Assembly: GCF_055900595.2 (NCBI RefSeq)
Contig: NZ_CM148325.1
DNA: 64,000 nt
Strand: one strand, 5' to 3'
The position numbers and the translations under genes are program-made. The notes under the pieces were generated by a model. It was not told the origin of the DNA, searched no databases, and saw only the letters and a program-made list of their open reading frames with translations. Positions within the stretch are counted from its first letter, which is position 1. Each line of letters starts with the position of its first letter. This document shows positions 28,527 through 31,500 of this stretch, piece by piece.

Positions 28527-31500
28527 ATGAATAAGAAATTTAAATATAAGAAATCGCTTTTAGCGGCTATTTTGAGTGCAACCCTGTTAGCCGGTTGTGA
28601 TGGCGGTGGCTCCGGATCTTCCTCCGATACGCCGCCTGTAGATTCTGGAACAGGGTCTTTGCCGGAAGTGAAACCTGATCCAACACCAAACCCGGAGCCG
28701 ACGCCTGAGCCAACGCCGGACCCAGAACCTACGCCGGAACCGACACCTGATCCTGAGCCAACACCAGAACCGGAGCCAGAACCTGTTCCTACGAAAACGG
28801 GTTATCTGACCCTGGGCGGAAGCCAGCGGATAACTGGTGCTACTTGTAATGGTGAATCCAGCGATGGCTTTACCTTTACGCCAGGCGACAAAGTCACCTG
28901 TGTGGCAGGGAACAACACGACAATTGCTACCTTCGACACCCAGTCAGAAGCTGCGCGTAGCCTGCGTGCGGTTGAAAAAGTGTCGTTTAGTCTTGAGGAC
29001 GCGCAAGAACTGGCAGCTTCCGACAATAAGAAAAGCAATGCGGTTTCGCTGGTAACGTCCAGTAACAGCTGTCCGGCGGATACAGAACAGGTTTGCCTGA
29101 CGTTCTCCTCGGTGATCGAGAGTAAACGTTTCGACTCGCTGTATAAGCAAATCGATCTGGCACCGGAAGAGTTCAAAAAGCTGGTCAATGAAGAGGTGGA
29201 AAACAATGCTGCGACCGATAAAGCGCCATCCACTCATACCTCACCGGTCGTGCCTGTCACCACGCCGGGAACAAAACCGGATCTGAACGCGTCCTTCGTG
29301 TCGGCTAACGCGGAACAGTTTTATCAGTATCAACCCACTGAAATCATTCTTTCCGAAGGCCGACTGGTGGATAGCATGGGCAATGGTGTGGTTGGCGTAA
29401 ATTACTACACCAGCTCAGGCCGTGGCGTAACTGGCGAAAACGGCAAATTCAACTTCAGCTGGGGCGAAACCATCTCCTTTGGTATCGACACCTTTGAACT
29501 GGGCTCAGTGCGCGGCAATAAGTCGACCATTGCGTTGACTGAACTGGGTGACGAAGTTCGCGGCGCGAATATTGATCAGCTTATTCATCGTTACTCCCAG
29601 GCCGGAAAAAATGATGAGCGTGAAGTGCCGGACGTAGTGCGCAAGGTCTTTGCCGAGTATCCCAACGTAATCAACGAGATTATCAATCTCTCGTTATCCA
29701 ATGGCGAGGCGTTGAGCGAAGGCGATCAAACCTTTGAGCGGACAAACGAATTTCTTGAGCAGTTTGAATCCGGGCAGGCTAAAGAGATTGATACGGCGAT
29801 TTGTGACTCCCTTGGGGGCTGCAACTCTCAGCGTTGGTTCTCGTTGACAGCACGCAATGTTAACGAAGGTCAGATTCAGGGCGTTATCAACAAGCTGTGG
29901 GGTGTGGATAAAGATTACAAATCAGTGACGAAATTCCACGTCTTCCATGACTCTACCAACTTCTATGGTAGCACCGGTAATGCGCGCGGTCAGGCGGTGG
30001 TGAATATCTCTAACGCGGCCTTCCCGATTCTGATGGCGCGTAATGATAAAAACTACTGGCTGGCCTTCGGCGAGAAACGTGCCTGGGATAAAAATGAGCT
30101 GGCGTACATTACTGAAGCGCCTTCCATTGTGCGACCAGAGAACGTGACACGCGATACCGCCACCTTCAACCTGCCGTTTATTTCGCTGGGGCAAGTCGGT
30201 GAGGGCAAACTGATGGTTATCGGTAACCCGCACTACAACAGCATTTTGCGTTGTCCGAACGGTTACAGCTGGGAAGGCGGTATTGATAAAAACGGTCAGT
30301 GTACGCGTAACAGTGATTCTAATGATATGAAGCACTTTATGCAGAACGTGTTGCGCTATCTGTCCGACGATAAATGGACGCCGGACGCGAAAGCCAGCAT
30401 GACCGTAGGTACCAACCTGGATACTGTCTATTTCAAACGTCATGGTCAGGTTACAGGAAACAGCGCTGAGTTCGGCTTTCATCCGGATTTTGCGGGTATC
30501 TCTGTTGAGCATTTAAGTAGCTATGGCGATCTCGACCCGCAGGAAATGCCGCTGCTGATCCTCAACGGCTTTGAGTATGTGACTCAGGTTGGTAACGATC
30601 CTTATGCAATCCCGCTGCGAGCAGATACCAGCAAACCGAAGCTGACTCAGCAGGATGTGACCGATCTGATCGCCTATCTGAACAAAGGTGGATCGGTGCT
30701 GATCATGGAAAACGTGATGAGCAATCTTAAGGAAGAGAGCGCGTCTGGCTTTGTGCGTCTGCTGGATGCCGCAGGCCTGTCAATGGCACTGAACAAGTCG
30801 GTGGTGAATAACGATCCTCAGGGGTATCCGGATCGCGTTCGTCAGCAGCGCGAAAAAGGTATCTGGGTATATGAACGTTATCCGTTTGTTGATGGAAAAC
30901 CGCCGTATACCATTGATGAAACAACGAAAGAAGTTATCTGGAAATACCAGCAAGACAACAAGCCAGATGACAAGCCGAAACTGGAAGTGGCCAGCTGGCT
31001 GGAAGATGTCGATGGCAAACAGGTCAAGCGTTATGCCTTTATCGATGAGGCGGAGCATGAAACAAACGAGTCCTTGGAGGCGGCAAAGGCAAAAATCATT
31101 AAGGCATTTCCTGGATTAGAGGAGTGTAAGGACCCGACATACCACTACGAGGTCAACTGTCTGGAATACCGTCCTGGCACCAATGTTCCGGTAACCGGGG
31201 GAATGTATGTTCCGCGCTATACGCAACTGAATCTCAGCGCCGACACTGCGAAAGCGATGGTGCAGGCTGCGGATTTAGGCACCAACATTCAGCGTCTGTA
31301 TCAGCATGAGCTCTACTTCCGAACCAATGGTCGCAAAGGTGAGCGTCTGAGCAGCGTCGATCTGGAACGTCTGTACCAGAACATGTCGGTCTGGCTGTGG
31401 AATGAAATTGAATACAGCTATGACAGCAGCAAGGAAGACGAGCTGGGCTTTAAAACGTTCACCGAGTTCCTGAACTGCTACGCCAACGATGCTTACACCA

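Follow-up and report, generated by a model that had tools for sequence, protein, structure and literature searches.

The run of alternating prolines close to the N-terminus of SslE (YghJ), encoded in the 64,000-nucleotide stretch of DNA analyzed here (one strand of contig NZ_CM148325.1, RefSeq assembly GCF_055900595.2; henceforth the window), most probably constitutes the second and larger part of an acidic, unstructured tether of about 66 residues that links the lipid anchor of the protein to its folded body. SslE has been studied extensively as a mucinase, a biofilm factor and a candidate for vaccines, and is both surface-anchored and secreted. The tract is a known feature of this protein, and the addition made here is only the spectrum of its allele frequencies.

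Anatomy of the SslE N-terminus and conservation of its linker

The anatomy of this region can be read directly from the translation. The signal peptide is followed by a lipobox (LLAG and then Cys24), whose cysteine is invariant across an alignment of 12 members of the family. Thereafter come a Gly/Ser-rich stretch of 23 residues, the residues V48-K49, the strict Pro-X run, the residues T89-K90, and finally the folded region starting with TGYLTLGG. Thus, the Pro/Thr/Glu-rich tandem repeat noted in the original prediction is recovered, with the DNA string that it quoted lying at 28692-28784 of the window and the peptide (residues 50-88) as predicted; its placement just after the lipobox is approximate, in that the repeat is indeed near Cys24 but the Gly/Ser-rich stretch and V48-K49 intervene. 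The 39 residues of the run include 20 Pro, 8 Glu, 3 Asp and 6 Thr, giving it an acidic character. The presence of a proline at each second position, against 4.6% Pro in the rest of SslE, is far beyond chance. Over the entire segment from the cysteine to the first domain (residues 25-90; 66 amino acids), Pro accounts for 35% of the residues, and acidic residues outnumber basic ones by 15 to 2.

In an AlphaFold2 prediction run on the 12-sequence family alignment, with secondary structure assigned by DSSP, residues 1-89 are all coil and the first beta-strand begins at residue 90. The predicted local distance difference test (pLDDT) score stays under 50 as far as residue 45 and lies at 49-63 from there to residue 70 (38-63 overall up to residue 70). 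An exhaustive HMMER search of representatives at 50% identity recovered full-length SslE/AcfD homologs down to 33-39% identity, and the linker was measurable in 12 lipobox-bearing sequences, namely that of the window and 11 representatives down to 36-39% identity. In all 12 the segment between the cysteine and the conserved CNG-containing domain is 28-66 residues long, net acidic and 17-35% Pro, and a further representative (P0002) is Pro-rich by eye. These linkers cannot be aligned with one another and contain unrelated motifs (e.g. PPIEIPPDIPPP, PDQELPDQERPDPELP and IPEIPPNVPSIPIVPIEP), the longest and most regular of them being the E. coli version; the NCBIfam model of the SslE/AcfD subfamily starts only at residue 106. 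The segment thus displays the hallmarks of a disordered Pro-rich linker, with no predicted structure and with composition and position retained across the family while sequence and length are not. To judge from the compared sequences, a segment that keeps its place and composition but not its sequence bears the signature of a spacer. Together with the position between Cys24 and residue 90 and the published designation of the segment as a linker, the family-wide composition supports the putative role ascribed to it in the original prediction, namely that of a linker spacing the protease from the membrane.

Certain distant homologs (P0007, P0010 and P0013) possess 300-560 residues of repeated folded domains before the conserved body. 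The arrays of P0007 and P0013 are located between the lipobox cysteine and the conserved region, and P0007 additionally contains 21-residue repeats; such arrays look like another way to make a long stalk. One apparent homolog (P0091) corresponds to the SslE N-terminus with Pro replaced by Leu or Phe, Thr by Ile or Met, Ser by Phe and Ala by Val throughout. These replacements follow the pattern of C-to-T converted DNA (as in a bisulfite-treated or deaminated library), and the entry is an artefact in a public protein collection.

Under the proposed tether mechanism the Gly/Ser-rich residues 25-47 would form the first part of the tether and the 39-residue (Pro-X)n run, likely in an extended, polyproline-II-like conformation, the second, the two together joining the lipid-modified Cys24 to the first folded domain, whose start lies near residue 90. 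Once SslE has been exported by the adjacent type II secretion system (T2SS-beta), the acyl chains would keep it on the outer membrane, and the stalk would let the mucinase body of approximately 160 kDa stand off from the surface. With polyproline-II geometry (~0.31 nm per residue) the run would extend over ~12 nm and the 66-residue tether over up to ~20 nm.

The residue at position +2, immediately after the lipidated cysteine, is Asp25 (window 28596-28601, CDGGG). Asp at this position is the classical inner-membrane-retention or Lol-avoidance residue in E. coli, and Asp25 fits a lipoprotein passed to the T2SS instead of the Lol pathway. The linker might alternatively be a leash for type II secretion, with the Asp holding the anchor in the inner membrane while about 66 extended residues let the body reach the secretin. 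Both the presence of an Asp of the retention type directly after Cys24 and the location of sslE directly upstream of pppA-gspS2-gspC..H are in keeping with this, as would be a reach of up to ~20 nm at ~0.3 nm per residue under standard geometry. However, the linkers of homologs go down to 28-35 residues and the Asp is missing at +2 in most SslE/AcfD homologs from outside Escherichia; moreover, a recent preprint on T2SS architecture treats the recruitment of SslE without mention of its N-terminus, and neither it nor a paper on the GspN lipoprotein mentions the SslE linker. A leash function is hence considered unlikely. Alternating prolines make a poor substrate for most proteases, and this disfavors the further proposal that the linker is a cleavage site at which SslE is shed from the surface of the cell into the medium. 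Such release could account for the published occurrence of the protein both on the surface and in supernatants, but no processed N-terminus is described in the publications on SslE/YghJ considered here, making this role very unlikely.

Repeat structure and length variation among E. coli genomes

At the DNA level, Tandem Repeats Finder (TRF) detected a period of 30 nucleotides (nt) with 2.5 copies, 75% matches and a score of 78, a period of 18 nt with 2.7 copies, 70% matches and a score of 54, and a period of 12 nt with 1.9 copies and 90% matches. The main unit is accordingly one of 30 nt, encoding a decapeptide (Table 1), with 6-, 12- and 18-nt periods nested inside it. The units of 15-18 nt proposed in the original prediction apply to the 3' part of the tract but not to this main unit. 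The first two decapeptide units encode the same peptide with nine of ten codons different, solely at third positions. Overall, the repeat copies share 70-75% DNA identity, and no exact repeat in the tract is longer than 11 nt. The tract is accordingly a repeat at the peptide level but has decayed at the DNA level, in agreement with its low diversity. It is not an assembly artefact: several independent complete genomes carry a 281-nt stretch identical to that of the window, and 509 complete-genome records agree with this stretch at no less than 99% identity.

Selection against DNA repetitiveness was considered and rejected, as two codon simulations showed no departure from expectation: when synonymous codons were permuted inside the tract, the longest exact repeat came to 11.7 +/- 2.5 nt, as compared with 11 nt observed, and when codons were drawn according to their usage across the gene it came to 13.8 +/- 3.4 nt, with 34% of the draws at or below 11. 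Proline codons are used more evenly in the tract than in other parts of sslE, with CCG accounting for 6 of 20 Pro codons as opposed to 44 of 68 elsewhere in the gene (Fisher p = 0.009). This, along with the nine codon differences between the identical decapeptides (post hoc P ~0.02-0.03), is a weak signal that is not built upon.

The region is carried by ~4,050-4,090 of 5,426 complete E. coli genomes. Their lengths were surveyed by means of two even-step samples down the BLAST ranking (n=59 each) and of allele-specific queries read by identity bands; additionally, 16 alleles covering the length classes of the BLAST table were aligned with the window (17 in all). Five length classes were directly observed (-12, -6, 0, +6 and +78 nt), and the strain-to-strain length variation anticipated in the original prediction is thereby confirmed, the repeat number not being identical across all sslE alleles. 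The length in the window is the modal one, found in ~83% of the sslE-carrying genomes. The first sample comprised 48 modal sequences, nine at -6 nt, one at -12 nt and one with a frameshift outside the repeat, and the second comprised 50 modal sequences, eight at -6 nt, one at -12 nt and no others. Across all records the -6 nt class accounts for at least 565 (14%) and the +6 nt class for at least 40 (1.0%), both counts being lower bounds, while the -12 nt class accounts for ~65 (1.6%); the +78 nt class is confined to two near-identical (clonal) porcine enterotoxigenic E. coli (ETEC) genomes. All four kinds of indel within the repeat are in frame, are multiples of 6 nt and occur at short internal repeats. 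Most of the raw BLAST length differences have their source in polymorphisms just 3' of the repeat: an apparent +3 nt class stems from GATCNG versus GDITCND at residues 103-105 (window 28830-28850), and an apparent -3 nt class from AGNNTT versus AGNTT (window ~28905). Such length variation is modest and ordinary for a linker of this type.

Table 1. Window coordinates of sslE, of the elements of its N-terminal segment and of the length variants found in E. coli genomes
Feature	Position	Strand	Details
sslE (yghJ) coding sequence	28527..33086	+	1519 amino acids + stop; translation, RefSeq annotation, NCBIfam, Pfam
sslE product class	28527..33086	+	T2SS-beta-secreted lipoprotein, M60 zinc metalloprotease (mucinase)
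Signal peptide and lipobox	28527..28598	+	MNKKFKYKKSLLAAILSATLLAG then C; direct reading; Cys24 codon 28596-28598
Gly/Ser-rich flexible segment, residues 25-47, putative first part of tether	28599..28667	+	DGGGSGSSSDTPPVDSGTGSLPE; AlphaFold2 pLDDT <50 for residues 1-45
Strict (Pro-X)19-Pro run, residues 50-88	28674..28790	+	PDPTPNPEPTPEPTPDPEPTPEPTPDPEPTPEPEPEPVP; composition, TRF, AlphaFold2 coil
9-mer CCAACACCA	28680..28688	+	second copy 28758-28766, 78 nt apart
Decapeptide unit 1	28692..28721	+	PEPTPEPTPD
12-nt unit pair GAGCCGACGCCT / GAGCCAACGCC	28695..28717	+	TRF period 12, 90% matches; allele alignment
Decapeptide unit 2	28722..28751	+	PEPTPEPTPD
Decapeptide unit 3, degenerate	28752..28781	+	PEPTPEPEPE; 17-allele alignment
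-6 nt, Thr-Pro lost	~28758-28763 (unit 3)		e.g. Nissle, E. coli B, an ETEC
-12 nt, EPTP lost	28695-28717 (one 12-nt unit copy)		e.g. L010, L015
+6 nt, +2 amino acids	28746		CCTGAT duplicated; CCTGAT/CCTGAG pair 28746-28757 spans unit 2/3 boundary; L017
+78 nt, +26 amino acids			exact tandem duplication; ETEC1732/1734; equals spacing of CCAACACCA copies (28680, 28758)

With respect to the origin of these changes, the flanks of the +6 allele (repeat excluded) are identical to those of alleles of the 0 state, and those of a -6 and a -12 allele differ from each other by 2 nt; such identical or nearly identical flanks indicate that the length changes are recent and within lineages. The -6 and -12 states are each also found on backgrounds that are 12-22 differences apart. 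From these comparisons the length changes appear to be recent and probably recurrent. Under the tether mechanism the DNA tract would be an array of 6-, 12- and 30-nt units of some age that have diverged through synonymous changes, and its short exact matches (of at most 11 nt) might permit occasional replication slippage or unequal recombination, the outcome being in-frame gains or losses of 2, 4 or 26 residues only. These changes would be tolerated because function would rest on composition and approximate length and not on exact sequence. In terms of polyproline-II geometry the common variants would shift the span by ~0.6-1.2 nm, whereas the rare duplication would add ~8 nm.

The tract had also been described in the original prediction as slippage-prone. 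In-frame length variants do exist, but strong proneness is not supported, since the DNA repeats are too imperfect, and ~83% of genomes share one length. Given the extent of divergence between the copies and the short length of the longest exact repeat, the locus is neither hypervariable nor phase-variable. Since the tract is repetitive, belongs to a surface antigen and differs in length between strains, it might be taken for a contingency locus mediating phase or antigenic variation, i.e. high-frequency switching of SslE expression or epitopes. This is extremely improbable: the indels in the tract keep the frame, the lone frameshift seen falls outside the repeat, and the features that speak against strong slippage, including the predominance of one length, argue equally against switching. 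The tract was therefore rejected as a contingency locus of the variable-number tandem repeat (VNTR) type, its indels being in frame only and its copies imperfect (70-90% TRF matches). A literature search for yghJ as a marker in multilocus VNTR analysis found nothing relevant among the papers it listed.

Some observations weigh against the tether as proposed above. The pLDDT rises to 76-78 for residues 71-90, and the C-terminal part of the Pro-X run may, according to this model, pack against the first domain. The recombinant SslE used for structural study was made without the linker (PMC8881592). One length dominates even though alleles differ by ~6% in the region, and this dominant length could be under constraint, which is not predicted by a view in which approximate length suffices. 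Finally, as sslE is mosaic, the occurrence of -6 and of -12 alleles on backgrounds that have diverged from one another could reflect intragenic recombination instead of recurrent slippage.

Several other disruptions and rearrangements of sslE were encountered in the course of this survey. The only frameshift, in NCTC9038 (L005), is a 1-base deletion in GGCGGTGGC in the Gly-rich stretch (window ~28604) and renders sslE an annotated pseudogene; either a genuine mutation or a homopolymer error of long-read sequencing could account for it. In EPSSH018 (L018; NZ_CP125889.1, match 4001-4092) the gene is interrupted within the first Pro-rich units (window ~28681), with the IS3 insertion point lying at about the first copy of the CCAACACCA 9-mer (28680..28688). 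Transposase genes of IS3, IS110 and ISL3 and the gene iha follow the break, and a 62-residue "hypothetical protein" remains. Several porcine ETEC genomes show two to three matches each to the sslE region (L019, H101-H111). ETEC1706 carries a second sslE-pppA-gspS2-gspC cluster elsewhere on the chromosome, next to IS1A and a truncated permease gene (NZ_CP122904.1 2914492-2926724), which suggests that a T2SS-beta island has been transposed or duplicated. In many genomes the annotation covers no more than a 5' fragment of sslE, named "Accessory colonization factor AcfD, missing C-terminus" (H35, H36, L007 and L013); some of these fragments adjoin gspJ, implying that a deletion in those lineages runs from inside sslE into the T2SS-beta operon.

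Possible glycosylation of the linker and comparison with known proline-rich spacers

The six Thr residues of the run are each flanked by Pro on both sides, and the run might alternatively be mainly an acceptor for O-glycosylation (heptosylation), forming a mucin-like immunodominant stalk with its sugars serving as a shield or a decoy epitope. YghJ of ETEC H10407 indeed contains 54 O-linked sites (PMC8417355), and rabbits given glycosylated YghJ, but not those given the non-glycosylated form, strongly enrich antibodies to proline-rich motifs of residues 40-90 (PMC10637626). However, the published BEMAP table of YghJ sites begins at the peptide 91-101, with none mapped inside the linker (PMC8417355). 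Trypsin would leave the linker as one long peptide of 41 amino acids (residues 50-90), and on account of this length the lack of a mapped site represents an absence of data and not evidence of absence. Additionally, the linkers of homologs, although acidic and rich in Pro, often contain little Ser or Thr (e.g. PPIEIPPDIPPP); as many of them have few such residues, glycosylation is not the family-wide reason for the segment. As the principal role of the run, glycosylation is therefore possible but doubtful. It is nevertheless compatible with the role of a tether, and both may hold at once. A more elaborate combination, in which the length would be selected near 39 Pro-X residues by the depth of lipopolysaccharide and O-antigen or by a T2SS leash, with heptosylated Thr residues as a decoy and the minority alleles being adaptive, appears quite unlikely. 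In such a case the alleles of -2, -4, +2 and +26 residues would be associated with particular types of surface glycan or particular hosts; for instance, porcine ETEC alone yielded the +26 allele.

The preferred reading as a tether places the SslE tract alongside several other spacers. The (Glu-Pro)n-(Lys-Pro)n spacer of E. coli TonB is likewise an X-Pro alternating, extended and non-globular segment between a membrane anchor and a functional domain. Unlike that of SslE, which is wholly acidic and located at the surface, it crosses the periplasm and is basic in one of its halves, and the two are not homologous. Interdomain linkers of secreted glycoside hydrolases are extended and rich in Pro and Thr, vary in length, and are often O-glycosylated and resistant to proteases, but they join catalytic and binding domains, whereas that of SslE joins a lipid anchor to the first domain. 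The pullulanase PulA of Klebsiella offers a further lead, being the classical T2SS-secreted lipoprotein, with Asp at +2 and a low-complexity Gly/Ser/Pro-rich segment after the lipidated cysteine; its enzyme fold is unrelated to SslE and its segment is collagen-like (Gly-X-Pro). Procyclin (EP/PARP) of Trypanosoma brucei is, like SslE, a lipid-anchored surface protein with an acidic rod of alternating Glu-Pro/Asp-Pro, though it is eukaryotic and has a glycosylphosphatidylinositol anchor in place of an N-acyl-diacylglyceryl cysteine. Homology to it was rejected, as the match of residues 40-88 to the Trypan_PARP model (PF05887) reaches only 32.4 bits against a gathering cut-off of 100 and is purely compositional; the same holds for an NCBIfam match to ClfB, which is far under its cut-off.

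Within the literature on SslE itself, the segment has been termed a "flexible linker (L)" or "disordered region" (PMC8881592), and residues 44-90 a "poly proline-rich domain" forming an unstructured loop in an AlphaFold model in an epitope study of 2023 (PMC10637626). These designate the same segment of the same protein, and position, disorder and Pro-richness agree without substantive difference; the length classes and their frequencies, which are unreported in the two studies, are quantified here. Thus, the SslE segment is an already described linker, and probably works like other X-Pro spacers without homology to them.

The sslE gene, its neighborhood and significance

The coding sequence starts at the ATG at 28527; the program-made list of open reading frames begins further upstream, at a TTG at 28509. 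The RefSeq annotation of strain DA33135 has an ATG start equivalent to window position 28527 and names the product "lipoprotein metalloprotease SslE", and the first 601 nt of its gene are 100% identical to window 28530-29130. The window protein matches the NCBIfam model NF037973 (metallo_SslE) over residues 1-1519 with 3472.3 bits (cut-off 3000), which is a full-length family match, and NF037974 (SslE_AcfD_Zn_LP) with 1954 bits (cut-off 800). The original prediction had named the gene as SslE, and both the annotation and the former model bear this out. Pfam recovers DUF4092, M60-like_N (43.2 bits) and Peptidase_M60 (130.6 bits, residues 1172-1464), and the HExxH zinc motif takes the form HEVGH (WLIWHEVGHNAAE). 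In DA33135 the gene order is glcA followed by sslE, pppA, gspS2, gspC, gspD, gspE, gspF, gspG and gspH (T2SS-beta), and the window has open reading frames of 269 and 136 amino acids 3' of sslE, in keeping with this order. Thus, the curated model, the M60 domain with its HExxH motif, the lipobox cysteine, with predicted lipidation, and the T2SS-beta linkage together place the protein in the SslE/AcfD family. Compared with the DA33135 protein, residues 1-533 are identical, followed by 87 differences including a 2-residue indel near position 1016 (~94% identity over the whole protein); this mosaic pattern, as seen in the sequences, indicates intragenic recombination.

Apart from its bearing on vaccines, the segment is a textbook low-complexity tether, which neither opens a new question in biology nor brings a long-standing one within reach of a test. 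SslE/YghJ is, however, a vaccine candidate against pathogenic E. coli, and its Pro-rich region is reported to be a glycosylation-dependent antibody target (PMC10637626). For this context it is useful that ~17% of the sslE-carrying genomes differ in linker length and that one lineage carries a 26-residue duplication.

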